The notes beneath the pieces are model-generated. The model saw only the letters and a list, made by a program, of their open reading frames with translations. It did no database searches and was not told the origin of the DNA. Positions 1,561 through 21,606 of a stretch of DNA of 64,000 bases are shown here, piece by piece; the stretch's first letter is position 1; each line of letters starts with the position of its first letter. Where the stretch lies: positions 62,612-126,611 of the forward strand of contig JAPLLW010000012.1 of the NCBI GenBank assembly GCA_026387355.1. Reading direction: 5' to 3'. A program made the position numbers and the translations under genes. Source of the DNA: Candidatus Omnitrophota bacterium. GTDB lineage: Bacteria; Omnitrophota; Gorgyraeia; Gygaellales; Profunditerraquicolaceae.

Positions 1561-2817
1561 ATGTTTATATTGTACGACCTTATATTTCTAATCTTAGTTA
1601 TAATTACGTTACCGGTTTATATTTTAAAGGGTAAATTCCATACGGAGTTTTTTAAGCGCTTTGGTGTTCTGCCAAAAGGGCTTGAGTTAGACCGTCCGAT
1701 ATGGGTTCATGCGGTAAGCGTAGGAGAAGCTGTAGTTGTACGCGGTTTAGTTGATGAATTGCGCAAGGTTTACCCGGGTAAGAAGTTTGTAATTTCTACT
1801 GTTACGCCTACGGGCAATAAGATTGCTAAAGATTTGGTTAAGGACGCAGACCTGTTAACTTATTTACCGCTAGATTTTAGTTTTATTGTAAGAAGCGTAA
1901 TGCAGCGAATTAATCCGCAACTCTTTATTATAGCCGAAACCGAGATCTGGCCAAACCTGATCAGCGTGCTTAATAAGAAAGGTATCCCGATTGTTACGGT
2001 TAACGGCAGGATATCTGATTCTTCTTTTAAGGGGTATCGGGTAATTAAATTCTTAATTAAAAATATTCTAGCCAAAGTGAATTTATTTTGCACTCAGACA
2101 GATTCTGACGCAAAGAGATTAATTGCGTTGGGGGTAGACCCTGATAAAATTAAAGTAACAGGAAATATGAAATTTGATCAGATAAATTTAGTAAGGACTA
2201 GTGATTATAGGAAGCGATTAGGTTTAAGTCCCGAAGAAAAACTTTTTGTTGCCGGTTCGACTCATTCCGGAGAAGAAGGGGTGGTGATCGGCGTTTATAA
2301 AAAAATACTTGATATTTTCCCCAATGTTAAACTTTTAATTGCCCCGCGCCATCCGCAAAGAGCTAAAGATATAGAGTTGTTAGCTAGAAGTTTTGGATTC
2401 TTTCCCGTTAAAACTTCAGAATTGTCAACTCAGTGTGTGTCATGTTTGCAAAAACCCGTCTTTATATTGGATACTGTAGGAGAGTTGGTTAATTTTTATA
2501 GCGCATCCGATATAGTTTTTGTGGGTGGAAGTTTGATTAAAAAAGGCGGGCATAATATTTTAGAGCCGGCTAGTCTTGGGAAGCCAGTAATTTTTGGGCC
2601 ATATATGTTTAATTTTCGCGATATTGCGCAGATGTTTATAGATAATAATGCTGCAATACAAGTGCATAACCAGGAAGAGTTGTTTCTTGCCGTAGAAAAT
2701 CTATTGAAAAATACTCAGAAGGTTCTAGAGTTAAACAGCCAGGCTAGAGAAGTAATCATTAGAAACCAAGGCGCAACCTTAAGGAGCGTGCAGGCGATTA
2801 AGGGTGTTCTTTGTTAA
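1561..2817 (+). CDS. waaA: 3-deoxy-D-manno-octulosonic acid (Kdo) transferase WaaA/KdtA
   Basis: The N-terminal 'IWVHAVSVGE' motif is typical of Kdo transferase. The size (418 aa) fits a GT30 enzyme, and lpxK is immediately downstream. Confidence 0.88.
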   Translation: MFILYDLIFLILVIITLPVYILKGKFHTEFFKRFGVLPKGLELDRPIWVHAVSVGEAVVVRGLVDELRKVYPGKKFVISTVTPTGNKIAKDLVKDADLLTYLPLDFSFIVRSVMQRINPQLFIIAETEIWPNLISVLNKKGIPIVTVNGRISDSSFKGYRVIKFLIKNILAKVNLFCTQTDSDAKRLIALGVDPDKIKVTGNMKFDQINLVRTSDYRKRLGLSPEEKLFVAGSTHSGEEGVVIGVYKKILDIFPNVKLLIAPRHPQRAKDIELLARSFGFFPVKTSELSTQCVSCLQKPVFILDTVGELVNFYSASDIVFVGGSLIKKGGHNILEPASLGKPVIFGPYMFNFRDIAQMFIDNNAAIQVHNQEELFLAVENLLKNTQKVLELNSQAREVIIRNQGATLRSVQAIKGVLC

Positions 2818-2873: not shown

Positions 2874-3272
2874 GTGTACAAGATAGCGGTTAAGCATGTT
2901 AAGGATTACGCTTTTAAAGTAAAATCTTCTGGATATGAGTTTGCTATTGACGCTAAAGGTAAAGAAGGAATTACTCCTCCGGATACGCTTTTGGCCGGTT
3001 TAGCCAGTTGCATCGGCGTGTATGTAACCAAGTATTCTGAGGGCGCTAAGCTTGGTTTAGAAAACTTTGAGATTATAGCTGAGGGAGAATTCAGCACTGA
3101 TGCGCCGGTTCGTTTTAAAGAGGTTAGTATCACTATTGATTTAAAAGGCGCAAAACTTGAGGAGCGCAGGGCGAATGCCTTAATGGAGTTTATTAAAAAC
3201 TGTCCAGTGCATAATACCCTGGAAAACAAACCTGAGGTAAAGATTAGAATAAATGATGGAGATAAGGGCTAG
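2874..3272 (+). CDS. OsmC/Ohr family peroxiredoxin-like protein
   Basis: A GTG start lies 7 nt after an AGGAG ribosome-binding site. The 'LLAGLASC' motif with conserved cysteines and the 132-aa size are typical of OsmC. Confidence 0.75.
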   Translation: MYKIAVKHVKDYAFKVKSSGYEFAIDAKGKEGITPPDTLLAGLASCIGVYVTKYSEGAKLGLENFEIIAEGEFSTDAPVRFKEVSITIDLKGAKLEERRANALMEFIKNCPVHNTLENKPEVKIRINDGDKG

Positions 3273-3975
3273 GCAGAAGAATAATATTGTTATCCTGGAT
3301 TTGGTCGGCCGCATTGATGTGGAATCGGCAAATCTGGTTGAGGCTATCGGCCAGTGCCTGCGCGATGGCTTTACCGATATTCTTTGTAATATGGAAGAGG
3401 TAGAGTTTATAGATTATATGGGGATATCGGTAATCGTTATCGTTTATAAAGAGATAACCAATAGCAAGGGGAGATTGAAATTTACCAATGTCCCAACCCA
3501 CATTAGAAATATTCTTTGCATAGCAGGCCTTGATCGGGCTATTGAGATTCACGTAGATGAGGAATTGGCTCTCAAGAGTTTTGGCGAAGATAAGATAATT
3601 GAAGATATCCAGAAGATGCAGTTGCGCCGCCGTTTTAAGCGTCTACCAATAGATTTGAAGATAGAATTAAAATCTAAATTTGGCAGGAGTCCGGTTTGCC
3701 TTAAGCTTGATCTGCTTAATTTAAGCGCAGTAGGCGCTTTTATCTTTGGGTGTGATAAATTTAAACTCGGCGATGAAGTAGTCTTGAAGTTACAGCTGCC
3801 CCCTAAGAACGAAGAATTCGAATTAGAAGCAAAGGTGGTCTGGATCCCCGATAAACATGTTCAACCGCATGCCTATCCTGGGCTCGGGGTAGAGTTTATA
3901 AATATTTTGCCACAGAAGCAGCAGAAGCTTATTGATTTCATCGAAAGAAACCTCTCTTTTATGTCCACGGATTAG
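3253..3975 (+). CDS. STAS (anti-sigma-factor antagonist) domain fused to a C-terminal PilZ (c-di-GMP binding) domain
   Basis: The N-terminal 'IVILDLVGRIDVESANLVEAIGQCL' is an SpoIIAA/STAS fold. The C terminus carries the PilZ motifs 'RRRFKR' (RxxxR) and 'DLLNLSAVG' (D/NxSxxG). The ORF overlaps the end of the osmC-like gene by 20 nt. Confidence 0.7.
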   Translation: MMEIRARQKNNIVILDLVGRIDVESANLVEAIGQCLRDGFTDILCNMEEVEFIDYMGISVIVIVYKEITNSKGRLKFTNVPTHIRNILCIAGLDRAIEIHVDEELALKSFGEDKIIEDIQKMQLRRRFKRLPIDLKIELKSKFGRSPVCLKLDLLNLSAVGAFIFGCDKFKLGDEVVLKLQLPPKNEEFELEAKVVWIPDKHVQPHAYPGLGVEFINILPQKQQKLIDFIERNLSFMSTD

Positions 3976-3984
3976 GTTATTTAA

Positions 3985-4638
3985 ATGTTTAAGCTAAAGT
4001 TTAAACCCAAAGCAATAATATTTGATATGGACGGGGTAATTGTAGATTCCATGCCGTATCATTTCTTGGCTTGGTATGAAGCCTTGCGGCCATACGGGTT
4101 AAGGGTAAGTTGTTTTGATGTTTACTCCAAGGAGGGTGAGTGCTGGGAAAAGACGCTTAAGGATCTATTCAAACGCTCGGGCATAAGGCCGACTGCAAGT
4201 CTTTTAAACGAAATATTTATCAAGCGCCAAAAGATATTTAAGAAGTATTTCCGGCGTTTTATTTTTAAAGGGGCAGAGGATTACCTGCTTTGTTTAAAGA
4301 GCCAGGGCTATTCCTTGGGTTTAGTAACCGGAAGTCCTATCCAGGAAGTAAATAAAATTTTATCTAGGGATATTCTTGGTTTATTTAACGCTATTGTAGC
4401 CGGAAACCAGGTTAAGAAGGGTAAGCCGCATCCTGAACCATACCTGAAAGCTGCCAAGTTACTTGATTTAAAGCCTAAAGGATGCGTAGTGGTTGAGAAT
4501 GCGCCTTTTGGGATTAAGTCTGCTAAAGGGGCAGGGATGTTTTGTATCGCCCTTACTACTAGCCTGCCTAAGGAATATCTCAAAGAGGCTGATATTGTAG
4601 TTGATAATTTAGCGGATATCTCCCGGATTATTTCTTAA
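3985..4638 (+). CDS. HAD-superfamily hydrolase (beta-phosphoglucomutase / phosphatase-like)
   Basis: HAD motif I 'IIFDMDGVIVDS' is present, with later 'GLVTGS' and 'VVVENAPFGIKSAKGAGM' motifs. Confidence 0.75.
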   Translation: MFKLKFKPKAIIFDMDGVIVDSMPYHFLAWYEALRPYGLRVSCFDVYSKEGECWEKTLKDLFKRSGIRPTASLLNEIFIKRQKIFKKYFRRFIFKGAEDYLLCLKSQGYSLGLVTGSPIQEVNKILSRDILGLFNAIVAGNQVKKGKPHPEPYLKAAKLLDLKPKGCVVVENAPFGIKSAKGAGMFCIALTTSLPKEYLKEADIVVDNLADISRIIS

Positions 4639-4752: not shown

Positions 4753-5805
4753 TTGCCTATGAAAGACTTTCTTTATAAGTTGGCTACGGACAGGTACAGG
4801 GGGCCATTTTTTGCTATTTCAAAGCTCTTACTCTTACTGCTTTCTTTTGTTTATGGAGCCGTGATCAGGGGGTTAACCCTCCTTTTAACCTCTAGGGCGG
4901 TAAGCCCAAAATGCAGAGTTATTAGTATCGGCAATATTACTTTAGGGGGGACAGGTAAAACTTCTTTAGTAAAATTTGTTGCGCTTACCCTTCAGGCTAA
5001 TAAACATAAGGTTGCGATAATTAGCAGGGGTTATAAAAGACTAGCCTTAGGATTGGGTGATGAGCCTTCTATGTTGCTTAATGGTTTAAAGGATATTCCG
5101 GTGATTGTGGACAGGGACAGATTGCGTGGCGCCCAGAGAGCAGCTGATGAATACGCAGCAGATACGGTAATTTTTGATGATGGGATGCAGCAGTGGAGGG
5201 TAAAAAAGGATTTAGAGATCGTAGTAGTGAACGCGGTTGAGGCCTTTGGCAATCGGCATATGATACCTCGTGGGGTATTGCGTGAACCTCTCTCTTCGCT
5301 TAAGCGGGCAGATGTCTTTGTTTTAGCTAAGACTAATCTCGTCCTGAGCACTGAAGATATCAAAAAGAACTTGAATAAGATTAAACCCGGTACGCTTATC
5401 GTAGAGACTATACATCATCCGGAGGATTTATATGAACTTAGAAATCCGCAAAAGCATTTAGCTACGGATTTCCTGAAAGATAAAAACGTGGCTTTATTCT
5501 CAGGGATAGGCGATCCGGATTCTTTTGTAAGTTTGGTCAGGAATCTAGGGGCAAAGCCTAAATTGGATTTGAGGTTTATAGACCACCATAATTATAGCGA
5601 TGAGGATATATCCGGGATTATTAATAAATCTAAGCAGAAAGATCTAAAAATAATTGTTACAACAGAAAAAGATGCTTCTAGGCTCTCTGAAGAGAGGCTC
5701 AAGCCTTTTGATGATTTTAAACTCTTAGTTTTACCCATAAAATTAAAGATTGTTAAAAATGAAGGAGAATTTATTGCTAGATTACTTAGCTTGCGTTCTA
5801 TTTAA
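4753..5805 (+). CDS. lpxK: Tetraacyldisaccharide 4'-kinase LpxK
   Basis: The P-loop 'GNITLGGTGKT' is the LpxK signature. The 350-aa size fits, and waaA and lpxL neighbours support the call. Confidence 0.85.
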   Translation: MPMKDFLYKLATDRYRGPFFAISKLLLLLLSFVYGAVIRGLTLLLTSRAVSPKCRVISIGNITLGGTGKTSLVKFVALTLQANKHKVAIISRGYKRLALGLGDEPSMLLNGLKDIPVIVDRDRLRGAQRAADEYAADTVIFDDGMQQWRVKKDLEIVVVNAVEAFGNRHMIPRGVLREPLSSLKRADVFVLAKTNLVLSTEDIKKNLNKIKPGTLIVETIHHPEDLYELRNPQKHLATDFLKDKNVALFSGIGDPDSFVSLVRNLGAKPKLDLRFIDHHNYSDEDISGIINKSKQKDLKIIVTTEKDASRLSEERLKPFDDFKLLVLPIKLKIVKNEGEFIARLLSLRSI

Positions 5806-7702
5806 TGTCTTAGGCGCTATCTTTCGAATCTTACCTATCGGCGTATGTCTTTTTTTAGGCAGAAGACTTGGGGATTGTTTTTTTTATTTTGACCCCAGGC
5901 ATAAGGCAAGAAGCTACGCCAATATTAAGACTGCCTTGGGGGATAAATTAGAACCCAAGCAGATCTTGCGCTTAACCAGAGAATTCTACCAATCATTTGG
6001 ACAGAGTATAATCGAAATATTTCTTATTCCTATTATTGACCGTAAATATCTGGAAAAATATGTGCAGACTGAAGGCTCTGAGTATGTGTACAGTGCGTTA
6101 AAAAGAGGTAAGGGTGTAATTTTACTATCTGTTCACGCAGGAAGCTGGGAGCTCTCTAATCTTATCAGTGCTAATTTTGGATTTCCATTTGTTTTATTTG
6201 TTAAGGGGCAGCATTTCCCGCGTTTAAATAAATTACTAAATAGATATAGGCAAGCGAAGGGCTGCAAAATAATCACCAGAGAAGGCGGTCTTAAGCAGTT
6301 GATTGATAGTTTAAAAAGTAACTCTGCTGTTGGAATTACTTTGGATCAAGGCGGTAGGGCAGGTAGCTTAACAGATTTCTTTGGCCAAAATGCTTCCATG
6401 TCAACCGGTTGGATAAAGCTTGCGTTAAAATATGACTGTAGCGTTATCCCGGTATTCTTTACGCGAGTTTCAGGGCCAAAGATTAAGGTATTTGCCGCAA
6501 AACCGCTAGAATTGATCAGGAGTAATGATTTAGAAAAGGATATTCAGGATAATTTGAATCTGGCGACTAAAGTTTTTGAGGGATTTATCAGGAAATATCC
6601 AAAAGAATATCTTTGGACTTATAAGATTTGGAAATACTCAGACCAAAGGAATATTCTGATTTTAAGCGATGGTAAGTCCGGGCACCTGCGTCAATCAGAG
6701 GCGCTAGCTAAGATCGCTGGAAATTGTTTCAAGGATAAAGGGATAAAATCAAAAGTTAGTATTGTAGAGATAAAGTTTAAGGGTAGGTTCTCAAAGGTTG
6801 CATTATCCCTAAGTAGTTGCCTTATAGGTAAGTATTCTTGTCAGGGCTGCTTACGGTGTCTTAGAAAGTTCCTTGATGATAATACAAATAAAAGCTTAGC
6901 TGTAATTAAGCCGGATCTGGTTATCTCTTGCGGATCAAAACTTGCTTTGATTAATTATCTAATTTCGGCAGAAAATCAGAGTAAATCTGTTACATTAATG
7001 CGTCCGCCATTTTTTAGTGCAGCTAGATTTGATTTAGTAGTTATGCCACAACACGATCATACTTTCAGGCGTAAGAATATAGTCGTAACTACAGCCGCAC
7101 TGAATCTTATTGATCGGGAATATCTGGATGAGCAATCGGCAAAGCTTATGCGTTCTTACAATCTAAACGCGCAAGCTATCTATCTAGGTATATTAATAGG
7201 AGGATCTAGTAAGAAATTTAGGCTGGATAAGGACTTAATGGTTAGGGTGGTACGGGAGATTAAAACAGTAGCAGAGATAATTAATGCGGATATTCTTTTA
7301 ACTACTTCCCGCCGCACAGAGGGGGAACTCGAAGATTTAATAAAAAAAGAATTTAAGGATTATTCCCGGGCAAAGCTCGTAGTTATTGCTAATGAAAAAA
7401 ATATTCCTGAAGCCGTTGGCGGGATATTAGGTTTAAGTAAGATAATCATAAGTTCTCCAGAAAGTATATCGATGATCTCTGAGGGTGTTAATAGCGCAAG
7501 ACCGGTTGTAGTTTTTAATGCGCCGGGATTAAGTAGGAAGCATCAAGAGTTTTTGAGGAATTTAGCTAAAAAGAATTACATCTCCTTAGCGGAAAAAGAC
7601 AGTCTGGTTAAAGTAGTTACAGATCTTTGGGTGGATAAGCCAGCTAGGCATGTTTTAGAGGATAATGCGTTAATCACAAAAGCCTTAGAGAGAATATTAT
7701 GA
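5750..7702 (+). CDS. Fusion protein with an N-terminal lipid A biosynthesis (Kdo)2-lipid IVA acyltransferase domain (LpxL/HtrB family) and a C-terminal Elm1/DUF1022-like (GT-B-like) domain
   Basis: Residues ~1-300 resemble the LpxL family ('LSVHAGSWELSN', 'ITLDQGG'). Residues ~300-650 begin 'RNILILSDGKSGHLRQSEALAKIAG', the characteristic start of the bacterial 'mitochondrial fission ELM1' family. The annotated start overlaps lpxK by 56 nt, so the true start may be downstream. Confidence 0.65.
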   Translation: MLKMKENLLLDYLACVLFNVLGAIFRILPIGVCLFLGRRLGDCFFYFDPRHKARSYANIKTALGDKLEPKQILRLTREFYQSFGQSIIEIFLIPIIDRKYLEKYVQTEGSEYVYSALKRGKGVILLSVHAGSWELSNLISANFGFPFVLFVKGQHFPRLNKLLNRYRQAKGCKIITREGGLKQLIDSLKSNSAVGITLDQGGRAGSLTDFFGQNASMSTGWIKLALKYDCSVIPVFFTRVSGPKIKVFAAKPLELIRSNDLEKDIQDNLNLATKVFEGFIRKYPKEYLWTYKIWKYSDQRNILILSDGKSGHLRQSEALAKIAGNCFKDKGIKSKVSIVEIKFKGRFSKVALSLSSCLIGKYSCQGCLRCLRKFLDDNTNKSLAVIKPDLVISCGSKLALINYLISAENQSKSVTLMRPPFFSAARFDLVVMPQHDHTFRRKNIVVTTAALNLIDREYLDEQSAKLMRSYNLNAQAIYLGILIGGSSKKFRLDKDLMVRVVREIKTVAEIINADILLTTSRRTEGELEDLIKKEFKDYSRAKLVVIANEKNIPEAVGGILGLSKIIISSPESISMISEGVNSARPVVVFNAPGLSRKHQEFLRNLAKKNYISLAEKDSLVKVVTDLWVDKPARHVLEDNALITKALERIL

Positions 7703-9786
7703 GAGTGCTGCAAATATTACCGGAACTTAATGTCGGGGGTGTTGAAACCGGGACACTGGACCTGGCTAAATACTTAGTGCGTCAGGGCCATCATGCAGTA
7801 GTAGTTTCGGCAGGAGGTGTTTTGGTCAAAGATTTAGAGGCACTGGGAGCTGTGCATTATCAATTACCGGTGCATAAGAAATCGCTATTTACCATGTTTA
7901 AGGCTATAGCGCCACTTGCGGAGATTATAAAAAAAGAAAAGATTGATATTGTGCATGCTCGATCGCGAGTTCCTGCCTGGATAGCTTATTTTGCTGCTCG
8001 AAAATGCAAGGTTGTTTTTATAACTACCTGTCATGGTTATTATAAAATGCATCCTTTTAGCTATGTTATGGGCTGGGCAAAAAGAGTAATTGTTTTGAGT
8101 AATATAATTGCCCGACATATGATCGATGATTTTAGCGTGCCGCATGAACGTATAAAGTTAGTCCCGCGAAGTGTAGATCTGGAGAAGTTTAAATATTTGA
8201 GTCCGGATAAGAAGCGGGGTAAAGAATTTAATATCGGTCTTATCGGTAGGATTACTCCTTTAAAGGGCCATCTTTATTTTATCAAGGCTATGGCTAAGGT
8301 GGCTAGAGTCGTGCCTACATTAAAAATCTGGATAGTGGGAGATGCGCCTAGTTCGCGTCAGGCATATAAAGAACAGGTCCAGGTTTTAACCAGGAGATTG
8401 GGACTTGATCATTGCACGGAGTTTCTGGGGACACAAAGGAATATTCCTGAGATCCTTTCGCATCTGGACCTGGTAGTTTTAGCTACCACAACTCATGAAG
8501 CATTCGGCAGGGTGATTATTGAGGCCCAGGCAGCAGGCGTTCCTGTGGTAGCAACCGAAGTAGGTGGTGTTGTAGATATTATTGAGAATGGTCGCACAGG
8601 TTTACTTGTTCCTCCTGCGGATGCGCAAGGGATGGCGGATGCGGTTGTTAAGATATTCAAGGATCCGTCTCTTGCTCGCGATTTTGCTGAGGCAGCGTAT
8701 AAAAAGGTTAAGGATAAATATAATATTGAATTGATGGTCAAGAATACGCTAGCTGTTTACGAAGAGGCCTTGAGTAACTTCAAGCTGCTCATTATAAAGC
8801 TCAGCTCTTTAGGAGATATTATTTTATCTACCGCAAGTTTAAGAGCGATAAGAGAAAGATTCCCGCATCATAAAGTGAGTCTTTTGGTAGGAGAGGAGTC
8901 CAAAGAAGTATTATTCAGATGCCCATATATAGATGAACTTTTAGTAGTTGATCTTAAAGATAAGGATAAGGGGCTAAAGGGTTTGCTAAGCATTGCCCGT
9001 ATTTTAAGAAAAAAGAACTTTGATTTAGTTATTGATCTGCAGAATAACCGCGCAAGCCATATACTTTCCTTTCTTTCTTTATCCATCGATCGCTACGGCT
9101 ATGATAATAAAAAACTAAGTTTCTTACTTAACCATCGGATTAAGGATATTCTGCCGTTAGTTGATCCGGTAGCGCATCAGTTTAGATTGCTTAAGATGTT
9201 GGGGATAGATCTGAAGGATAACCGTTTAGAGTTGTGGCCAGCTAAAGAAGATGAAGATTATGTGGAGAATTTATTAAATACGCAATGGTTAAGTATTGAC
9301 CAGAAGATCATCGGCATAAATATAAGCGCAAGTAAGCGCTGGCTCACTAAGTATTGGGCCAAAGATAATATTGCGCGGTTGTGCGAGGAGCTGGGTTTAC
9401 GAAATATGCGCGTAGTACTTACCGGAACAGCTAGAGATTCCGCGGACGCTAAAGAGATTATCTCTATGATTAAGAATACAAAAATCATAAATGCCTGCGC
9501 TAAAACCAATGTAAATCAGCTAGCTTGTTTAATTAAAAGATGCTCAGTATATATCTCCGCTGATTCTTCACCTTTACATATTGCTGTAGCAGTAAAGGTT
9601 CCTGTAATCGCATTTTTCGGGCCGACTGATCCTAATAGACATATGCCTCCGGCAAGAGAGGCAATAGTTATTAAAAGGGACCTACCGTGCAGCCCGTGTT
9701 ATAAACCCAAATGCAAGGATAAGAAATGCATGAGTTTGATTACAGTTGAAGAAGTTTTAGGGGCGGTAGAAAAGCTATCAAAATGA
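7699..9786 (+). CDS. Bifunctional glycosyltransferase with an N-terminal GT4 domain and a C-terminal GT9 (LPS heptosyltransferase-like) domain
   Basis: The GT4 motif 'EAFGRVIIEAQAAGVPVVATEVGG...GLLVPP' sits in residues ~1-350. From ~355, 'LLIIKLSSLGDIILSTASLRAIRERFPHHKVSLLVGEE' and the C-terminal 'SADSSPLHIAVAVKVPVIAFFGPTDP' are typical of WaaC/WaaF/WaaQ. Confidence 0.75.
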   Translation: MRVLQILPELNVGGVETGTLDLAKYLVRQGHHAVVVSAGGVLVKDLEALGAVHYQLPVHKKSLFTMFKAIAPLAEIIKKEKIDIVHARSRVPAWIAYFAARKCKVVFITTCHGYYKMHPFSYVMGWAKRVIVLSNIIARHMIDDFSVPHERIKLVPRSVDLEKFKYLSPDKKRGKEFNIGLIGRITPLKGHLYFIKAMAKVARVVPTLKIWIVGDAPSSRQAYKEQVQVLTRRLGLDHCTEFLGTQRNIPEILSHLDLVVLATTTHEAFGRVIIEAQAAGVPVVATEVGGVVDIIENGRTGLLVPPADAQGMADAVVKIFKDPSLARDFAEAAYKKVKDKYNIELMVKNTLAVYEEALSNFKLLIIKLSSLGDIILSTASLRAIRERFPHHKVSLLVGEESKEVLFRCPYIDELLVVDLKDKDKGLKGLLSIARILRKKNFDLVIDLQNNRASHILSFLSLSIDRYGYDNKKLSFLLNHRIKDILPLVDPVAHQFRLLKMLGIDLKDNRLELWPAKEDEDYVENLLNTQWLSIDQKIIGINISASKRWLTKYWAKDNIARLCEELGLRNMRVVLTGTARDSADAKEIISMIKNTKIINACAKTNVNQLACLIKRCSVYISADSSPLHIAVAVKVPVIAFFGPTDPNRHMPPAREAIVIKRDLPCSPCYKPKCKDKKCMSLITVEEVLGAVEKLSK

Positions 9787-9859: not shown

Positions 9860-10957
9860 GTGAAAATTCTTTTTATAATTAATCATCTTAATGTCGGAGG
9901 GATTACCAGCTATTCTCTGACTTTGGCAAAGGGCCTAAAGGCAGCCGGGCATGGTGTATATTGCGCGACTTACGCAGGAGAACTATTACCTAAATTTAAG
10001 GAAGCAGGAGTAGTTTACATGCATATACCAATAAAGACAAAGAAAGAAATTAATCCTAAAATATTATATAGCGTTTTTAAATTATCTAAAATAATAAAAG
10101 CAGAGAAAATTGATATTGTGCATACACATAGCCGGACGACTCAGGTTTTAGGGAGTCTGTTGCAGTGGTTTACCGGAGTAAAGCATGTTTTTACTTGTCA
10201 CGGTTTTTTTAAAAGCAGAATTTTACGTAGGCTATTCCCTTGTTGGGGGGATAAAATAATCGCTGTAAGTCAGCAAGTTAAAGATCACTTGGTTCAAGAT
10301 TTCAAAGTAAGCGATAAAAAAATAGTTGTTATAAATAACGGAATAGATGCGGATAGGTTTATTGGAGAGCTAAGTAAGACCAAGGACGAGATAAGGCAAG
10401 AGCTAGGATTAAACCATGGTCCTTTAGTTGGAATTATTGCCAGGCTTTCGGATGTTAAGGGGCATAAGTATCTTATTGAAGCAATGAAAGTAGTCTTAGA
10501 AAAGGCTCCTTCTGCGCAATTAGTAATTATAGGCGAAGGCAAGATGCAGGAAGAATTAAAAAACCTGACTATGGGGATAGGAATCAGTAAAAGCGTAATC
10601 TTTATCCAGCAGACATCTAATATGCAAGAGGCTTTGTCTGTTATGGATGTATTCGTAATGCCTTCATTGCAGGAAGGTTTAGGCCTTGCGCTTATGGAGG
10701 CAATGGCTTCTGGACTAAGTGTTGTTGGTTCAAATGTGGGTGGGATCAAAACTTTGATTGAGCATGGGCGCAATGGTTTATTAGTTGAGCCTGCTGATTC
10801 ACAGGGGCTAGCTTGCGCGATATCCAAGTTATTAGACGACGTATCCTTAAGGGAGAGATTAGGCATAGAGGCACGTAAGTTTATCCAGAATAATTTCTCT
10901 CAAAAGAAGATGGTTGATCAAACACTGGAGGTTTATGCGTCATGTTTAAGAGAATAA
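9860..10957 (+). CDS. Glycosyltransferase family 4 (WaaG/RfaG-like)
   Basis: The ORF has a GTG start. 'ILFIINHLNVGGITSY' and the C-terminal 'QEGLGLALMEAMASGLSVVGSNVGG...NGLLVEP' are typical of GT4. Confidence 0.85.
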   Translation: MKILFIINHLNVGGITSYSLTLAKGLKAAGHGVYCATYAGELLPKFKEAGVVYMHIPIKTKKEINPKILYSVFKLSKIIKAEKIDIVHTHSRTTQVLGSLLQWFTGVKHVFTCHGFFKSRILRRLFPCWGDKIIAVSQQVKDHLVQDFKVSDKKIVVINNGIDADRFIGELSKTKDEIRQELGLNHGPLVGIIARLSDVKGHKYLIEAMKVVLEKAPSAQLVIIGEGKMQEELKNLTMGIGISKSVIFIQQTSNMQEALSVMDVFVMPSLQEGLGLALMEAMASGLSVVGSNVGGIKTLIEHGRNGLLVEPADSQGLACAISKLLDDVSLRERLGIEARKFIQNNFSQKKMVDQTLEVYASCLRE

Positions 10958-11727
10958 GATTAATAGTAAGTGCCTGTTTGATTATTGTGTTTGTAGTATC
11001 AATCGGGTATCTACGCAGCATACGCACAGTTACGGTTATTACATATCATTCAATCGCGGCGATTGCGGATGAGGATGACCGGTTAACAGTTTTACCTAAG
11101 TCATTTAACCGGCAAATGCAGTTTTTAAAAGATCATAAATACAATGTTATCTCTTTAGAGAGACTGGGGGAACTTATTAAGTCTAAAAAAGCCCCTGATA
11201 AAACTATTGCCATAACCTTTGATGACGGCTTTAAGGATAATTATCTTTATGCCTATCCTGTTTTAAAGAGGTTAAATTTTCCAGCGACCATATTTATTAT
11301 TGTAGATAAGGTTGGTAGTTCAGGCAAGCGTTTGACTTGGGAGGAGATTAAGGAGATGCAGGGATCTGGTTTAATTACTTTTGGTAGCCATACCTTAAGT
11401 CATCCATATTTAACTGAAATTAATTCCGAGGCTGAGCTAAAAAGGCAAATCTTTGATTCTAAAAAGATTCTCGAGCAGAAATTAGGGGTTCCAGTAGATG
11501 TATTTTGTTATCCTTCCGGTAGATTTAATGCACATATTAAAGATTTGGTAGTCCAGGCAGGTTATAAGTTTGCCGTAGGGACAACTTTGGGGAAGAGGTT
11601 TTCTAATTTCGATCCATATTTAATTAAAAGAGTACGTATTTCTGCAAGTTCGGATAATCTAATTGATTTTTGGGCAAGGGTGAGCGGTTATTATAATTCA
11701 TTTCGGAAGCACAGCCGTACAAATTAA
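10942..11727 (+). CDS. Polysaccharide deacetylase (NodB homology domain), membrane-anchored
   Basis: There is an N-terminal TM helix. 'AITFDDGFKDNY' matches the NodB motif 1 (TFDDG), followed by 'HTLSHPYL'. Confidence 0.8.
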   Translation: MFKRIRLIVSACLIIVFVVSIGYLRSIRTVTVITYHSIAAIADEDDRLTVLPKSFNRQMQFLKDHKYNVISLERLGELIKSKKAPDKTIAITFDDGFKDNYLYAYPVLKRLNFPATIFIIVDKVGSSGKRLTWEEIKEMQGSGLITFGSHTLSHPYLTEINSEAELKRQIFDSKKILEQKLGVPVDVFCYPSGRFNAHIKDLVVQAGYKFAVGTTLGKRFSNFDPYLIKRVRISASSDNLIDFWARVSGYYNSFRKHSRTN

Positions 11728-12770
11728 TGAGTAAAGAGCATTCTGCTAAACGCATCCTTATTTTTAATGTTAATTGGCTAGGAGATGTTTTATTCTCTAC
11801 CGCTGTAATTAGAAATGTTCGACGTAATTTCCCGCATAGTTTTATTGCCTGCGTAATACCCAGCAGGTGCTATCCGGTGCTAAAAGGTAATCCGCATTTA
11901 GACGAAATAATTATCTTTGACGAAAAAGACCGGCATAGAAATGTCCTTCAGCGTTTAGATTTTATTCGCATACTTAAGGCTAAGAAATTTGATATTGCTT
12001 ATTTATTGCACCGTTCTTTCAGCCGCGCCTTAATCTGCAGGCTTGCGGGTATCCCTGAAAGGATAGGGCACCATACAAAGAAGAGAGGCTTTCTACTTAC
12101 AAAAAAAATCATACCTCCGCATAGAGATTCTTTGCATCGTATAGATTATTATTTGGATGTTATTGAAAAGGCGGGTTTAAAGATTGAAGACAGGTTTGCG
12201 GAATTCTTTTTTGGAAATGAGGACTTAGAATTCGTTGAAAAATTCTTAAGCAAGAATACGGTAGCAAAGGAAGATTTTGTAGTTGTGCTGAATCCTGGAG
12301 GAAACTGGTTGGCTAAGCGTTGGCCAAAAGATCATTGGGCGCGTCTTGCGGACAAATTAATACATGATTTCAAAGCCAAAGTGGTACTTACCGGTTCCCA
12401 TAATGATATATCTTTGGCTAAACATATCCAGGATGAGATGGTAAATAAGCCGATAATTGCCTGTGGAGTATTTAATTTAAAACAGCTTGGGGCATTAGCT
12501 AAGAGAGCGGATATATTTATTACTGCTGATACAGGGCCTTTGCATATTGCCAATAGCGTAGGTGCAAAGAAGATTATTGCAATCTTCGGTCCGACCTCAA
12601 CCTTGATTACCGGGCCTTATCCTGTGAAAAATGTAGTCATTCTGCAAAAAGACGTAGGCTGCGTTATCCCTTGTTATGAAGTTAACTGTAAAGATAGCCG
12701 TTGCATGAAGGCAGTTACAGTAGATGACGTAATAAATCAAGTAAAGTTACTAAGACTTACCAATGGTTAA
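11727..12770 (+). CDS. Glycosyltransferase family 9 (ADP-heptose:LPS heptosyltransferase-like)
   Basis: 'ILIFNVNWLGDVLFSTAVIRNVRRNFP' and 'ITADTGPLHIANSVGAKKIIAIFGPT' are typical GT9 motifs. Confidence 0.85.
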   Translation: MSKEHSAKRILIFNVNWLGDVLFSTAVIRNVRRNFPHSFIACVIPSRCYPVLKGNPHLDEIIIFDEKDRHRNVLQRLDFIRILKAKKFDIAYLLHRSFSRALICRLAGIPERIGHHTKKRGFLLTKKIIPPHRDSLHRIDYYLDVIEKAGLKIEDRFAEFFFGNEDLEFVEKFLSKNTVAKEDFVVVLNPGGNWLAKRWPKDHWARLADKLIHDFKAKVVLTGSHNDISLAKHIQDEMVNKPIIACGVFNLKQLGALAKRADIFITADTGPLHIANSVGAKKIIAIFGPTSTLITGPYPVKNVVILQKDVGCVIPCYEVNCKDSRCMKAVTVDDVINQVKLLRLTNG

Positions 12771-14787
12771 TAAAATCTTATTTATAACATTAAGTAATAT
12801 CGGTGATGTAGTATTGACTTTGCCGGTCCTAGATTTCCTGCGTCAGAATTTTCCCAATGCTTCGATTAGCGTAATTTGCGGCGTTAGGCCAAAAGAGCTG
12901 TTTGTTAATAGCCCGTACATCAATAAGCTTATTGTCTACGATAAGTATGCTCACCTTGCGCAGAAGCTAGAATTATTTAATAATCTAAGAAGAGAAAATT
13001 TTGATTTGATAGTGGATTTACGTAACTCCTTTCTGGGAGCGATTTTGCCAACTAGGTTTAGGACTTCCCCATTCCTAATGATACCTAGGTATATACAACA
13101 TATGAAAGATAGGCATCTTTATAGAGTCAAGAGTTTACGGTTAGGGAATGAATTAGCTAAGCCCGTGGATAAAACTTTTAATATCGCTCGTGCCGATGAG
13201 GAGTTTATTAAAAAGATATTGCAAGAAAATAATATACGTGAAGACGATAGATTGGTAGTAGTTTCTGCCGGAGCCAGGAGTGGTAGCAAGAAATGGCCCA
13301 GGGAAAGATTTGTGCAATTAATTTTTAAGTTAGTAAATGAATTATCTGTGAAAATAATTCTGGTGGGGGATAAAGGAGATGTTGCGTTAAGCCAGTCTAT
13401 TGCTAAGGAGTTAAAAAGTCAAGTCCTGGACTTAAGCGGCAGAACAAACTTAGGTGCATTAGCTGCGCTTATAAAGAAATCTAACCTTTTAATATGTAAT
13501 GATAGTGCAGTAATGCATATTGCTAGCTATTTTGATATTCCGGTTGTAGCTATATTTGGAATTACCGATGATGAAAAATACGCCCCATGGTCACAAGATT
13601 CTTCTGTGGTAAAGAAAGAGATCTTCTGCAGACCGTGCGAAAAGGCTGTATGCAGATTTGGGACTTTAGAATGTCTATCCCGGGTGCAGGTTGACGATGT
13701 CTTTAGAGAGGTAAAAGACAGATTAGAGAAAAAAGTTATAAGTAAAATCCCGCAAGATCTTAAGCGTATATTAATTGTACGTACTGATAGAATCGGAGAT
13801 GTGCTTTTATCTACTCCTGTAATTAAGGCGATTAGAGAGAGATATCCAAATGCTTTTCTTGCGATGATGGTTTCTGCGTATGCCAGGGAGATTATCGAAG
13901 GCAATCCTTATTTAGACCAGGTGATTATTTATGATAAAGACACAAAGCATAAGACTTGGATAAGTTCAATTAAGTTTGCCAAAGATCTTAATAAAAAGAA
14001 GTTTGATCTAGCGCTAGTCTTACATCCGACTAACCGCGTGCATTTAATTACTTTCCTCGCTGGGGTTCCCAGGAGGATAGGGTTAAACCGGAAGTTAGGG
14101 TTTTTGCTTACTAGTAAGTCAACGCATACCAAACAATTCGGGGAAAAGCATGAGTTAGAATATAACCTTGGTTTATTAAATTTTCTAGGGATTAAAGCAG
14201 AAGATAAAAGATTGTATATGCCGATTAAAGAAGAATCTGAAAAGAAGATCGAAGAGATGTTTCAGTTTCAATGTTTATGGTCGAAAGATAAATTATTAGC
14301 AATTCATCCGGCTGCCAGCTGTCCTTCTAAGATTTGGCCGGTAGAACGTTTTGCTGAATTAGCCGAAAAATTAGCGCAAAAATACGGGTTTAAAGTTTTA
14401 ATTGTCGGCGCCCCAAATGAAATGGGGCTTGCCGAAGATTTAATTAAGCGCATACATATACCGGTGATTAATTTCGTAGGTAAGACATCGATTAGTCAAT
14501 TAGCCAGTTTATTAAAAAGATGTACACTTTTTATTTCAAATGATTCAGGCCCGGTGCATATTGCATCAGCCGTAGGTACGCCGGTAATCTCAATTTTCGG
14601 AAGGAATCAGGCAGGCTTGAGTCCTAAGCGTTGGGGGCCAGTGGGCCCTAAAGATAAATTCTTGCATAAAGAGGTTGGGTGCATTAAGTGTTTGGCTCAT
14701 AATTGCAAGAAGGAATTCGCCTGTCTTAAGGCGATAAGCGTTGAGGATGTGGTTGAAGCGGCTAGTGTAATTATTAATCAACATTAG
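12763..14787 (+). CDS. Tandem double GT9 heptosyltransferase-like protein (two complete GT9 domains in one polypeptide)
   Basis: Domain 1 has 'ILFITLSNIGDVVLTLPVLDFLRQNFP' and 'ICNDSAVMHIASYFDIPVVAIFG'. Domain 2 (from ~aa 335) has 'ILIVRTDRIGDVLLSTPVIKAIRERYP' and 'ISNDSGPVHIASAVGTPVISIFG'. Confidence 0.8.
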   Translation: MVNKILFITLSNIGDVVLTLPVLDFLRQNFPNASISVICGVRPKELFVNSPYINKLIVYDKYAHLAQKLELFNNLRRENFDLIVDLRNSFLGAILPTRFRTSPFLMIPRYIQHMKDRHLYRVKSLRLGNELAKPVDKTFNIARADEEFIKKILQENNIREDDRLVVVSAGARSGSKKWPRERFVQLIFKLVNELSVKIILVGDKGDVALSQSIAKELKSQVLDLSGRTNLGALAALIKKSNLLICNDSAVMHIASYFDIPVVAIFGITDDEKYAPWSQDSSVVKKEIFCRPCEKAVCRFGTLECLSRVQVDDVFREVKDRLEKKVISKIPQDLKRILIVRTDRIGDVLLSTPVIKAIRERYPNAFLAMMVSAYAREIIEGNPYLDQVIIYDKDTKHKTWISSIKFAKDLNKKKFDLALVLHPTNRVHLITFLAGVPRRIGLNRKLGFLLTSKSTHTKQFGEKHELEYNLGLLNFLGIKAEDKRLYMPIKEESEKKIEEMFQFQCLWSKDKLLAIHPAASCPSKIWPVERFAELAEKLAQKYGFKVLIVGAPNEMGLAEDLIKRIHIPVINFVGKTSISQLASLLKRCTLFISNDSGPVHIASAVGTPVISIFGRNQAGLSPKRWGPVGPKDKFLHKEVGCIKCLAHNCKKEFACLKAISVEDVVEAASVIINQH

Positions 14788-16941: not shown

Positions 16942-17682
16942 ATGGATGTGATCGGAGTAATTCCTGCTAGGTATTCTTCCACAAGATTCGAAGGTAAGGT
17001 CTTGGCTAAAATACTCGGTAAACCCATGATCCAGCATGTCTGGGAGAGGGCAAAGCAGGCAAAGTGTTTAGACGATATAATTATCGCTTGCGATAACGAA
17101 TCAGTGGCCAGAGTTGCTCAGGAATTTGGGGCAAAAGTTGTGATTACTTCTAAGGATCATACCTGCGGGACAGATAGGATAAGCGAAGTGATAAATCCTC
17201 TGGATGTAAAGATAGTGGTGAATATCCAAGGGGATGAGCCCTTGATTCATCCTACGATGATAGATAGCGTAGCGCGTGCGCTTTTAGAAGATAAAAGTTT
17301 AAATATGGCTACGCTTATGAAAAGGATAGATGATGCACAGTCTGTTAGCGATCCGAATGTAGTTAAGGTGGTAGTGGATAGAAATAATTTTGCCTTGTAT
17401 TTCTCACGCTCAGCCATTCCTTATTTTGCGAATAATTCCGAAATTAAAGATCCGGTTTATTTTAAGCATATCGGGCTATATGCCTATACCAAAGATTTTA
17501 TCTTTACCTATAGAAATCTACCCGTTTCTATTTTAGAACAGATTGAAAAACTTGAACAGTTAAGGGTTCTGGATGGTGGTTTTAGGATTAAGGTTATTGA
17601 AACAAAGTATGATACCGTAGGCGTAGATACTCAAAGCGACCTAGAGAAGGTTGAGGCTTATTTAAGAGAAGAGAAGATATAA
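16942..17682 (+). CDS. kdsB: 3-deoxy-manno-octulosonate cytidylyltransferase (CMP-Kdo synthetase)
   Basis: 'VIGVIPARYSSTRFEGKVLAKILGKPMIQHVWERA' is the canonical KdsB N-terminus. Confidence 0.9.
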   Translation: MDVIGVIPARYSSTRFEGKVLAKILGKPMIQHVWERAKQAKCLDDIIIACDNESVARVAQEFGAKVVITSKDHTCGTDRISEVINPLDVKIVVNIQGDEPLIHPTMIDSVARALLEDKSLNMATLMKRIDDAQSVSDPNVVKVVVDRNNFALYFSRSAIPYFANNSEIKDPVYFKHIGLYAYTKDFIFTYRNLPVSILEQIEKLEQLRVLDGGFRIKVIETKYDTVGVDTQSDLEKVEAYLREEKI

Positions 17683-18494
17683 TGCATGAGGTAATGGTAA
17701 AAAATATTCCGCTCGGTAATTCCAGGCCTTTGGTGCTTATTGCCGGACCCTGCGTAATCGAATCCCAAACGTTATGTCTTGATACCGCCAAAAGAATTAA
17801 GGATATTACTGTTAAGTTAGGTATTCCTTATATATTTAAATCCAGCTTTGATAAGGCTAACCGTACCTCCGTAGATTCTTATCGCGGGCCGGGGATAAAA
17901 AAAGGCCTTGAGGTTTTAAATAAGGTTAAGCAGCAGATCAAGGTTCCGGTATTAAGCGATGTGCATTGCGCTAAGGATATGCAAGAGGCTGCGAAAGTCT
18001 TGGATATTATCCAGATTCCGGCTTTTTTATCACGCCAGACGGATATTATAGTAAGCGCAGCTAAAACCGGCAAGGTTGTGAATATAAAAAAAGGGCAATT
18101 CTTGGCTCCTTGGGATATCTTGCCGATTATCAAGAAAATTGAATCCGTAGGCAATAAGAAGATTATCATTACTGAGCGGGGGGTAAGTTTTGGTTACAAT
18201 AATTTAGTTACGGATTTTAGGGCGCTACAGATAATGCGCGATTTTGGTTATCCGGTTATCTATGATGCAACCCATAGTATTCAGATTCCCGGTGGGAAGG
18301 GAACTTGTTCCGGAGGAGAAAGAAAGTTCGTGGATGGATTATCGCGCTCAGCCGTAGCTTTTGGTTGCGATGGCCTGTTTCTGGAAGTGCATCCTGATCC
18401 GGATAAAGCGCCTTGCGACGGAGCCAATATGATTAATCTAAAAGATTTGGAAAGGCTACTTAAACAAATTAAAAAGATAGAGGCAGCATTATGA
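17682..18494 (+). CDS. kdsA: 2-dehydro-3-deoxyphosphooctonate aldolase (Kdo-8-P synthase)
   Basis: 'LVLIAGPCVIES' and the DAHP-synthase-I family architecture, at 270 aa. Confidence 0.9.
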   Translation: MHEVMVKNIPLGNSRPLVLIAGPCVIESQTLCLDTAKRIKDITVKLGIPYIFKSSFDKANRTSVDSYRGPGIKKGLEVLNKVKQQIKVPVLSDVHCAKDMQEAAKVLDIIQIPAFLSRQTDIIVSAAKTGKVVNIKKGQFLAPWDILPIIKKIESVGNKKIIITERGVSFGYNNLVTDFRALQIMRDFGYPVIYDATHSIQIPGGKGTCSGGERKFVDGLSRSAVAFGCDGLFLEVHPDPDKAPCDGANMINLKDLERLLKQIKKIEAAL

Positions 18495-19459
18495 AGATAG
18501 ATGTGATTAAAAGGGCAAGAGAGGTTTTTGATATCGAGGCAGGCGCAATTAAAGATTTAAAAAAGCGCCTGGGTAAGAATTTTAAAGATTCAGTAAGTTT
18601 AATCCTGAAGACAAAAGGTCGGGTAATCGTAAGCGGGATGGGTAAGACCGGGATTATCGCTCAGAAATTTTCTGCTACTCTTGCATCAACCGGTACACCT
18701 AGTCTATTTTTGCATACTGCTGAAGCAATTCACGGCGATCTAGGTAAGGTTACAAACGACGATGTAGTTATTATACTTTCTAATAGCGGTTCGACCGAAG
18801 AGATGAAGCAATTTCTCCCGCTATTAAAGAAGATAGGTGCTAAAGTGATTGCGCTTACCGGTAACACAAAGTCTATTTTAGCAAAATATAGCGATTTAGT
18901 CTTAGATGTATCCGTAAAGAAAGAAGCATGTCCTTTAGGTCTTGCGCCTACGGCGTCTACTACCGCAACTCTAGCTATGGCTGATGCCCTAGCGGTCTGC
19001 TTATTGGAATTAAAAGGTTTTAAAGAAAAAGATTTTGCATTCTTTCATCCCGGTGGTGCTTTAGGCAAGCGCCTGCTTTTGAAGGTTGAAGATATTATGC
19101 GCTCAGGCAAAGCTAACCCGATAGTTAAAGAGAATGAATTGGTCTCAAGGGTGCTTTTAAAGATTACTCAGGCCCGCGCAGGTTCGGCTACAGTAATAGA
19201 TAGAGCCGGGAAGTTAATAGGTATATTTACTGACGGAGATCTGCGCCGCCATGTGGAGATTGATCGTAATCTTTCTGTACGCAAGATTAAAGAGGTAATG
19301 ACCAAGAATCCTACTGTAGTTTATAAGGATATGCTGGCAGCCGAGGCTATGCGCATCTTGCAGGAGAAAAGAATTGATGAATTACCGGTAGTAAATATTA
19401 AAAGAGAGCCGGTTGGACTTTTAGATGTGCAGGATCTTTTAAAAGCAGGATTAGCTTAA
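18491..19459 (+). CDS. kdsD: Arabinose-5-phosphate isomerase KdsD/KpsF (SIS plus tandem CBS domains)
   Basis: The SIS motif 'GRVIVSGMGKTGIIAQKFSATLASTGTPS' is followed by C-terminal CBS pairs. Confidence 0.9.
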   Translation: MKIDVIKRAREVFDIEAGAIKDLKKRLGKNFKDSVSLILKTKGRVIVSGMGKTGIIAQKFSATLASTGTPSLFLHTAEAIHGDLGKVTNDDVVIILSNSGSTEEMKQFLPLLKKIGAKVIALTGNTKSILAKYSDLVLDVSVKKEACPLGLAPTASTTATLAMADALAVCLLELKGFKEKDFAFFHPGGALGKRLLLKVEDIMRSGKANPIVKENELVSRVLLKITQARAGSATVIDRAGKLIGIFTDGDLRRHVEIDRNLSVRKIKEVMTKNPTVVYKDMLAAEAMRILQEKRIDELPVVNIKREPVGLLDVQDLLKAGLA

Positions 19460-19462
19460 GGC

Positions 19463-20005
19463 ATGTTCAATAATCCCATTACTGAAGATTTAAAAGAGCA
19501 CGCAAAAAAGATAAAGATTCTATTATTGGATGTGGATGGAGTGCTTACTGACGGCCGCATTGTTTATGATTCTAAGGCCCGGGATTCAAAGTTCTTTGAC
19601 GTGCATGATGGGTTAGGCGTTTATCTTTTAAGCAAAGTAGGTATAAAGACCATAATTGTGACTGCTAAGAGCTCGCGGGCGATTAAGCCAAGGGCCAAAG
19701 ACATGCGGGTAGCTGAAGTATTCGGTGATGTCTCACCCAAAAGCGCTATCCTTGATAAAATTATAAAGAAATATAATGTTTCTAAAGATGAAGTTTGTTT
19801 TGTCGCCGATGATCTTGTGGATCTAGGCTTAATGAAACTTGTTGGTTTTCCGGTTGCAGTCTTTAATGCCTGTCCTGAAATTAAACAGGTAGCCTCTTAT
19901 ATTACTATAAAGCATGGAGGTAGAGGCGCTGTGCGCGAAGTTGCCGAATTGATTCTTAAGGCGCAGGGCAAATGGAATGATATTGTAAAATTTTATGAAG
20001 CTTAA
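19463..20005 (+). CDS. kdsC: Kdo-8-phosphate phosphatase (HAD family)
   Basis: 'IKILLLDVDGVLTDGRIVY' and the 180-aa size fit KdsC. Its position after kdsD mirrors the E. coli yrbH-yrbI order. Confidence 0.85.
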   Translation: MFNNPITEDLKEHAKKIKILLLDVDGVLTDGRIVYDSKARDSKFFDVHDGLGVYLLSKVGIKTIIVTAKSSRAIKPRAKDMRVAEVFGDVSPKSAILDKIIKKYNVSKDEVCFVADDLVDLGLMKLVGFPVAVFNACPEIKQVASYITIKHGGRGAVREVAELILKAQGKWNDIVKFYEA

Positions 20006-20903: not shown

Positions 20904-21606
20904 AGGGCTAAGTAAATCTTACGGCGGCAGAGAAGTAGTTAAGGGCGTAGACATCCTGGTTAAGCGCGGAGAGATCGTCGGACTCCTGGGCCCTAATGGC
21001 GCCGGTAAAACAACTACTTTTTATATGGTAGTCGGAATCATTCCTCCTAACCGCGGAAAGATAGTCTTTGACAATTACGATATAACTAATTTACCTATTC
21101 ATGAACGCGCTCATTTTGGCATTGGTTATCTTTCGCAAGAAGCATCCATATTCCGTAAGCTCACAGTCGAAGAGAATATCATGGCAATCTTAGAGACACT
21201 CCCTATTAGCAGGCCAGAAAGAAAGCATCGTTTGGAGAGTTTGCTTAATGAACTAAATATAGCGCATCTTGCAAAGAGCAAAGCTTATACTTTATCTGGA
21301 GGCGAAAGACGCAGGCTCGAAATTACCCGCGCGCTAGTAACGAATCCATCCTTCATACTTTTAGATGAACCGTTCTCCGGCATTGATCCTATCGTAGTTA
21401 ATGAGGCGCAGGAGATTATTAAGGAATTAAGGGATAAAGGTTTAGGAATTTTACTTACGGATCATAATGTGAGAGAGACACTCTCTATCACTGATAGGGC
21501 GTATTTGATCGCCGAAGGTAAGATTCTTATTTCAGGTACAGCCGATGAACTTATTAATAACGCACAAGCCCGTTCGATTTATTTGGGTGAGAAATTCAGG
21601 ATGTAA
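20884..21606 (+). CDS. lptB: LPS export ABC transporter ATP-binding protein LptB
   Basis: Walker A 'GPNGAGKTT', ABC signature '[11 protein letters not shown]', Walker B '[11 protein letters not shown]', at 240 aa. Confidence 0.85.

Follow-up and report, generated by a model that had tools for sequence, protein, structure and literature searches.

The secondary lipid A acyltransferase LpxL of Escherichia coli acts on Kdo2-lipid IVA (Kdo, 3-deoxy-D-manno-oct-2-ulosonic acid). The plant protein ELM1, a mitochondrial fission factor of Arabidopsis and the source of the name of the Pfam family Mito_fiss_Elm1, is described as an adaptor for DRP3A on mitochondria; bacterial proteins of the same family include a Kdo transferase of Acinetobacter baumannii. 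Members of these two enzyme families are joined in a single gene in a 64,000-nucleotide stretch of a metagenome-assembled genome (MAG) of a Candidatus Omnitrophota bacterium (GenBank assembly GCA_026387355.1, contig JAPLLW010000012.1, positions 62,612 to 126,611), hereafter referred to as the window. The gene, designated lpxL-kdoT-like (5759..7702, + strand), was delimited by homolog alignment and encodes 647 aa: an LpxL/LpxM-type secondary lipid A acyltransferase domain (aa 1-295; 5759..6643, +) is followed by an ELM1/GtrOC1/KdoT-family glycosyltransferase domain of the GT-B type (aa 297-647; 6647..7699, +). The fused gene is real and conserved across Omnitrophota, and its product is very probably bifunctional, with both activities directed at Kdo-lipid A intermediates. 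The two enzyme families were already known, and what is new is their arrangement in one gene; literature searches found no description of an LpxL-ELM1 fusion, or of lipid A biosynthesis or LpxL in Omnitrophota.

The A. baumannii protein GtrOC1, a member of Mito_fiss_Elm1 in Pfam clan CL0113, was predicted to be a lipooligosaccharide glycosyltransferase by Kenyon et al. in 2014, and divergent Mito_fiss_Elm1 types (GtrOC1, 14, 19, 22) are found within the outer-core (OC) loci of Acinetobacter (PMC4172580). Upon deletion of the ELM1-like gene A1S_2903, the Kdo2 core remains (VanOtterloo et al. 2024, PMC10936431). In December 2025, purification of the A1S_2903 product, named KdoT, was reported in the Journal of Biological Chemistry; in vitro, this enzyme moves Kdo from CMP-Kdo onto Kdo2-lipid IVA, adding a third Kdo residue (KdoIII), while it is inactive on lipid IVA and has an approximately two-fold preference for the tetra-acylated over the hexa-acylated substrate (PMC12856342). 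KdoT requires R180 of its SRRT motif, whereas D8, H13, H109, D110, and R179 are individually dispensable; the enzyme is membrane-associated but has no transmembrane helix, and a distant homolog from Rickettsia complements the delta-kdoT mutant (PMC12856342). The initial annotation of the window, made from the sequence alone, stated that the family (as DUF1022) has no demonstrated biochemical function, which is outdated in view of the 2014 prediction (PMC4172580) and the in vitro activity of KdoT (PMC12856342). Since the link of the ELM1 family to Kdo-lipid A is already experimental, the fusion, put forward there as strong guilt-by-association evidence that the family acts on lipid A or Kdo, corroborates this link and is not new evidence for it.

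The longest reading frame extends from TTG 5750 to the TGA stop codon at 7700-7702 as a single open reading frame (ORF) of 650 aa on the + strand. ATG 5759 is the likely start, since homologs begin with 'MKxxx..DY', and residues are numbered here from this codon (aa 1); the identical protein at NCBI (P0001) starts at TTG 5774 and comprises 642 aa. The public names cover one half each, 'ELM1/GtrOC1 family putative glycosyltransferase' at NCBI and 'KDO2-lipid IV(A) lauroyltransferase' at IMG. The combination of Lip_A_acyltrans and Mito_fiss_Elm1 domains proposed initially for the 650-aa ORF was confirmed by the Pfam scan suggested along with it. PF03279 matched aa 6-295 with 152 bits against a cut-off of 22.3 (E 2e-44; model positions 7-294 of 295), and PF06258 matched aa 311-615 with 160 bits against a cut-off of 27 (E 9e-47), both far above the thresholds. 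The block quoted in the initial annotation, RNILILSDGKSGHLRQSEALA, corresponds to aa 297-317. No second copy of either domain was found within the 64-kb window.

To survey the distribution of the fusion, one genome per GTDB species was scanned with a diverse alignment as the query; 442 genomes contained a relative, and the best 80 loci, all of which belong to Omnitrophota, were examined. An unbroken in-frame LpxL extension of 263-394 aa precedes the ELM1 match in 72 of these 80 species loci, and the HX4[D/E] motif is retained within it in 71 of the 72. The gene is cut by a contig end in six loci, and the frame changes in two (L045 and L057). The two frame changes are located inside conserved motifs, away from the domain boundary, which points to assembly errors. 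The initial annotation had named an artificial joining of two genes by a frameshift or sequencing error as a finding that would overturn it, but the fusion is not such an artefact. Both Pfam domains are present in all 120 listed homologs of the full-length protein (identity 46-100%, about 620-717 aa), which, where named, are assigned to Omnitrophota or Omnitrophica, as well as in 116 of the 150 closest 50%-identity cluster representatives, 93 of which are full length. The title 'uncultured Planctomycetales' is attached to 17 of the 80 related records (third-party assemblies such as L010, L011, L032, L042, L049, and L050); the fused gene in them is of the Omnitrophota type, with 44-55% identity, and their titles are probably coarse or wrong taxonomic labels.

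The domain junction, KYSDQ (aa 292-296; 6632..6646, +), was located from the alignment and an AlphaFold2 (AF2) model. Across 46 aligned sequences, the surrounding segment 'YLWTYKIWKYxxExNILILSDGKxGH' is gap-free and conserved. The full-length AF2 model has a predicted local distance difference test (pLDDT) score of 87.6 and a predicted template modelling (pTM) score of 0.84. In this model, the last helix of the acyltransferase (281-291) is followed by the first GT-B strand (296-303) after about four residues, leaving no room for a flexible linker; therefore, the two domains look rigidly joined in the model rather than tethered.

The acyltransferase half has the fold of a solved member of the family plus an N-terminal membrane anchor; the solved structure of A. 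baumannii LpxM is PDB entry 5KNK. The hydrophobic segment YLACVLFNVLGAIFRILPIGVCLFLG (aa 9-34; 5783..5860, +; AF2 helices 3-24/27-44) is the sole strongly hydrophobic stretch of the fused protein in a Kyte-Doolittle scan, and it is likely the single membrane anchor, as in LpxL and LpxM. The HX4E catalytic dyad (H126 and E131, in HAGSWE; 6134..6151, +) is invariant in the alignment of 46 homologs, as is the DQGG block. The acyltransferase half thus looks catalytically intact. All NCBIfam matches on the N-terminal half are to LpxL/LpxM/LpxP-type models. Compared with LpxL (HtrB) and LpxM of E. coli and A. baumannii, the fused protein bears an additional C-terminal glycosyltransferase of 350 aa. 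PatA, a mannoside acyltransferase, is as good a structural match to this half as LpxL and LpxM are.

The C-terminal half is predicted to adopt a GT-B fold with two Rossmann-like subdomains. Its closest structural matches are UDP-sugar enzymes and not WaaA; a PDB sequence search returned no solved homolog of this domain, so that no ELM1-family structure was available for comparison. WaaA (KdtA), a member of glycosyltransferase (GT) family GT30, belongs to a separate family with no sequence similarity to the ELM1 domain, and the window carries its own waaA gene at 1561-2817.

For a direct comparison with KdoT, fragments of the A. baumannii protein (MHIVYVSDGKAGHRSQALG, AVIPEHDGIPA, ILTTSRRTPAE, and RVATYLLAKN) were recovered by translating the mutagenesis primers given in the supplement of PMC12856342. 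Their 51-aa concatenate matched truncated ORFs only. One of these opens the outer-core locus of an Acinetobacter chromosome (CP115961.1, 3.9 Mb; locus L088): the gene immediately before it encodes an aminotransferase (Pfam Aminotran_4) and occupies the position of ilvE according to Kenyon et al. (PMC4172580), and the genes after it encode, in order, a Glyco_trans_1_2 glycosyltransferase, a polysaccharide deacetylase, and GT2 and GT4 enzymes. The kdoT ortholog at L088:5001-5890 is split by a one-base frameshift into ORFs of 90 and 205 aa. Joining the two frames gave a 296-aa ortholog, which served as the comparison partner in place of the exact A1S_2903 sequence; in it, H109, D110, R179, and R180 land on their published numbers. 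Many other Acinetobacter records contain N-terminal kdoT fragments of 45-90 aa, which reflect either sequencing errors or frequent inactivation.

The C-terminal domain of the window protein is 24% identical to the rebuilt ortholog over 284 residues (E 1e-18), and a profile of fused and stand-alone Omnitrophota domains aligned with it at an hhalign probability of 99.7% (E 8e-27). Five blocks lie in register, with the window sequence given first: SDGKSGH and SDGKAGH, MPQHD and IPEHD, GGSSK in both, LLTTSRRT and ILTTSRRT, and ESISMISE and DSVSMIFE. The SDGKSGH motif (6665..6685, +) holds D304 and H309, equivalent to D8 and H13 of KdoT, and D304, G308, and H309 are invariant within the fused clade. 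H432 and D433 (7052..7057, +) are equivalent to H109 and D110, and the SRRT motif (S517 R518 R519 T520; 7307..7318, +) is equivalent to S178-T181. R519, the counterpart of R180, is invariant family-wide in three alignments (A1, A2, and A3), while the first arginine, at the position of R179, is replaced in some members (SLRT, SPRT) of a wider set that includes alphaproteobacterial sequences. An invariant second and a variable first arginine match the mutagenesis of KdoT, in which R180 is essential and R179 dispensable. With its GT-B fold and an SRRT motif containing the required arginine, the glycosyltransferase half also looks catalytically intact.

KdoT and the window domain share PF06258, the GT-B fold, and a glycosyltransferase part without a transmembrane helix, and both genes belong to an LPS (lipopolysaccharide) core locus next to polysaccharide deacetylase and GT4 genes. 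In contrast to the stand-alone KdoT of Proteobacteria, the Omnitrophota domain is fused to an acyltransferase and is about 55 aa longer, including approximately 45 aa inserted into the acceptor-side subdomain (around aa 330-380), where AF2 confidence is lower. This insert contains the Cys-containing segment CLIGKYSCQGCLRC (aa 354-367; 6818..6859, +; pLDDT about 70-76), which, instead of binding a metal, may contact lipid or the membrane. Zinc coordination by the insert was considered and dropped; C361 alone is more than 90% conserved. The plant ELM1 falls into the same Pfam family, but the window domain has a bacterial context without any relation to fission, and the name 'Mito_fiss_Elm1' is misleading for the bacterial protein.

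A variable, repetitive Arg/Pro-rich insertion was observed right after the HD motif in some fused homologs, the window protein being without it. Its units resemble RPPRRRRGDSQSH and are present in up to several copies (columns ~466-521 of alignment A1); carriers are P0091 and P0113, together with long homologs such as P0093, P0095, and P0114.

The fusion sits in a long co-directional LPS gene array on the + strand. The lpxK gene (4753..5805, +) is the immediate upstream neighbour and shares 47 nt with the fusion, while waaA (1561..2817, +), encoding the GT30 Kdo transferase, is three genes upstream and is separated from lpxK by genes for a STAS-PilZ protein (3253-3975) and a HAD hydrolase (3985-4638). 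The placement directly downstream of waaA-lpxK described initially is right only in approximation. On the other side, the ATG of a gene for a fused GT4-GT9 glycosyltransferase (7699..9786, +) overlaps the stop codon of the fusion (ATGA). The array also includes genes of the CMP-Kdo donor pathway (16942..20005), namely kdsB (16942-17682), kdsA (17682-18494), kdsD (18491-19459), and kdsC (19463-20005), all on the + strand. The fusion is thus encoded between the enzymes that make Kdo2-lipid IVA (LpxK and WaaA) and those that extend the core. The same gene order was found in relatives L001, L003, and L004 at about 53-55% identity. Among the 80 species loci, an LpxK homolog ends beside the start of the fusion in all 65 that could be tested, and a GT4-GT9 homolog starts right after it in 67 of 71, with overlapping stop and start codons in 33.

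The initial annotation had also asked whether relatives encode the two domains in separate genes lying side by side. No adjacent lpxL and elm1 pair was found among them, the apparent splits in L045 and L057 being the frameshifts described above; LpxK-ELM1 fusions or stand-alone ELM1 genes were found instead. An LpxK-ELM1 fusion followed by GT4-GT9 is present in three divergent clusters (P0138, P0167, and P0161) on related metagenomic contigs. In L089, for example, waaA is followed at some distance by the LpxK-ELM1 gene (P0167, L089:3438-5543) and then by GT4-GT9, GT4, GT9, GT9, and PfkB genes. At the clean junction of these proteins, some 10 residues separate the C-terminus of LpxK from ILILSDGKAGH. 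They share with the window protein the ELM1 module, including SRRT, as well as the locus and the downstream GT4-GT9 gene, but the fusion partner is the 4'-kinase LpxK and the locus is without an LpxL domain. The order lpxK, stand-alone ELM1, GT4-GT9, again without an LpxL domain, was found for P0144, in loci L090 (1893-2990) and L091; P0144 and the ELM1 part of P0138 share 66% identity. In a MAG labelled 'Deltaproteobacteria' (L092), an SDR gene and a stand-alone ELM1 gene precede GT4-GT9. GT4-GT9 follows the ELM1 module in all architectural variants seen; therefore, this downstream gene is the constant neighbour of the module, while LpxL is its usual but not obligatory fusion partner.

The overlap of lpxK with the fusion in the window (5759-5805) is read in different frames; overlaps of 47-50 nt are called in L001 and L003, and in L090, lpxK is called as overlapping the stand-alone ELM1 gene by 41 nt. 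From such overlaps, LpxK-ELM1 fusions may have arisen easily.

Stand-alone ELM1 paralogs also occur in Omnitrophota. P0213 (L085:7001-8110), which has SLRT in place of SRRT and is not located near lipid A genes, and P0217 come from Omnitrophota MAGs, and their NCBI accessions in a consecutive range suggest the same assembly. No lipid A gene is adjacent to P0213 or P0276, and a homolog from Hyphomicrobiaceae is likewise not beside lipid A genes. These paralogs suggest further, different roles of the ELM1 family within Omnitrophota.

The domain identities and folds, the intactness of the motifs, and the conservation and synteny of the fusion described above are observations, whereas the substrates of the two halves, the donor sugar, and which reaction comes first are inferred; for Kdo as the donor sugar, the grounds are homology and the context of waaA, kds genes, and lpxK nearby. 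One membrane-anchored polypeptide would combine two enzymes of LPS assembly on the cytoplasmic face. The N-terminal half would most likely transfer an acyl chain from acyl-ACP (acyl carrier protein) to Kdo-substituted lipid IVA, and the C-terminal half, by analogy with KdoT, would most likely pass an additional Kdo from CMP-Kdo onto the Kdo2-lipid IVA that WaaA produces; core extension would be the next step, carried out by the translationally coupled GT4-GT9 enzyme. Since Kdo2-lipid IVA is the substrate on which E. coli LpxL acts and the one that KdoT prefers, the two halves would share a substrate. The fusion would tether an otherwise anchor-less glycosyltransferase to the membrane near this substrate at 1:1 stoichiometry. 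We consider it probable that the protein combines an anchored LpxL-type acyltransferase with a KdoT-type transferase and that both act on Kdo2-lipid IVA; for the more specific proposal, drawn from the KdoT analogy, that the donor is CMP-Kdo and a third Kdo is added, the chances appear evenly balanced.

Several points weigh against this assignment. We know of no biochemistry for any Omnitrophota protein and of no LPS structure for the phylum. None of 17 NCBIfam models reaches its equivalog cut-off on the acyltransferase half (the best, NF006270, scores 131 bits against 248), which therefore is not assigned to LpxL, LpxM, or LpxP specifically. Identity to KdoT is just 24%, the window domain carries the extra acceptor-side insert, and many GT-B enzymes have a conserved arginine close to the donor, which alone does not specify Kdo. 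Moreover, the LpxL domain is missing at this locus in some relatives. The ELM1 family may include other specificities; the surroundings of the stand-alone Omnitrophota paralogs are either O-antigen-like gene clusters or unrelated to LPS core genes.

An alternative of the same architecture, in which the ELM1 domain moves a non-Kdo sugar or uses another position of Kdo-lipid A, one version being a KdoII transferase beside a monofunctional WaaA, is possible although we regard it as rather unlikely. The low identity to KdoT and the acceptor-side insert would fit such a specificity, as would the divergent Mito_fiss_Elm1 types occurring even inside Acinetobacter OC loci, the paralogs in O-antigen-like clusters, and the top structural matches to UDP-sugar enzymes instead of WaaA. 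However, the motif required in KdoT is conserved in register together with its surroundings, the locus lies between waaA/lpxK and the core glycosyltransferases with CMP-Kdo genes in the array, and the Rickettsia homolog, though distant, still complements delta-kdoT (PMC12856342). It is very unlikely that the C-terminal domain is not a transferase at all, but an epimerase- or hydrolase-like protein or a non-catalytic scaffold recruiting the downstream glycosyltransferases: purified KdoT alone transfers Kdo (PMC12856342), the Pfam scan gave no match on the fused protein to Epimerase_2 (PF02350), the profile of the UDP-GlcNAc 2-epimerases to which an old annotation of the family ('nucleoside-diphosphate-sugar epimerase') refers, and the invariance of the donor-side motifs over hundreds of sequences would not be explained by a passive scaffold. 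An artefact joining two adjacent genes by a frameshift or misassembly, conceivable for a window from a MAG with two related assemblies frameshifted in this gene, is practically excluded by unbroken ORFs in 72 independent species-level genomes and 93 full-length cluster representatives, by the conserved gap-free junction and continuous model fold, and by the position of the two frameshifts off the domain boundary.

Other genes of the array are, upstream, an xerC/D-like recombinase gene (668-1537) and, downstream of GT4-GT9, genes for a GT4 (9860-10957), a polysaccharide deacetylase (10942-11727), a GT9 (11727-12770), a double GT9 (12763-14787), a PfkB kinase (15926-16939), an LptC-LptA fusion (19995-20903), and lptB (20884-21606). 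In the GT4-GT9 protein (7699-9786), GT4 occupies about aa 1-360 and a heptosyltransferase-like GT9 about aa 360-695. Two matches to GT9 (heptosyltransferase family) in the 674-aa protein encoded at 12763-14787 point to a tandem GT9-GT9 fusion; the counterpart of this protein is one 689-aa gene in L001 and two separate GT9 genes in L089. The single 302-aa ORF at 19995-20903, beside lptB and kdsBADC, carries LptC (aa 23-163) followed by LptA/LptD_N (aa 193-288) and looks like an LptC-LptA fusion. These cases suggest that LPS genes of this lineage are often fused to neighbours. The gene combining STAS (anti-sigma antagonist-like) and PilZ (c-di-GMP-binding) domains at 3253-3975 is likewise placed in L003 and L004 and may point to a regulatory link with c-di-GMP within the LPS operon.

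The neighbourhood of the ELM1 module and GT4-GT9 echoes the KdoT-GnaT pairing of Acinetobacter: the order ELM1 then GT4 has its parallel in A. baumannii, where KdoT and GnaT depend on each other inside the cell in a way not yet explained and the GT4 enzyme GnaT/LpsB acts next. One could speculate, with considerable doubt, that the ELM1 module and a GT4 represent an ancient inner-core unit common to Omnitrophota and Proteobacteria, a WaaA-independent 'KdoIII then next sugar' branch, and that the lipid A enzyme encoded upstream, LpxL in most lineages and LpxK in some, has repeatedly captured the module by covalent fusion as a reflection of real kinetic coupling, or a handing-over of substrate, at the branch point formed by Kdo2-lipid IVA. 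If this were true, core initiation, 4'-phosphorylation, and secondary acylation would form one physical assembly line in these ultra-small bacteria.

The fusion is useful as corroboration and for annotation, and it opens no new question, since the function of the family is already established; it gains modestly in interest through the LpxK-ELM1 variants and the ELM1-then-GT4 order. The KdoT family is extended well beyond Proteobacteria into a candidate phylum without cultured LPS chemistry, for which a WaaA-independent extra sugar, probably Kdo, is predicted in the inner core. The natural LpxL-ELM1 and LpxK-ELM1 fusions provide independent genomic support for ELM1 enzymes working at the stage of Kdo2-lipid IVA and on the inner membrane's cytoplasmic face.

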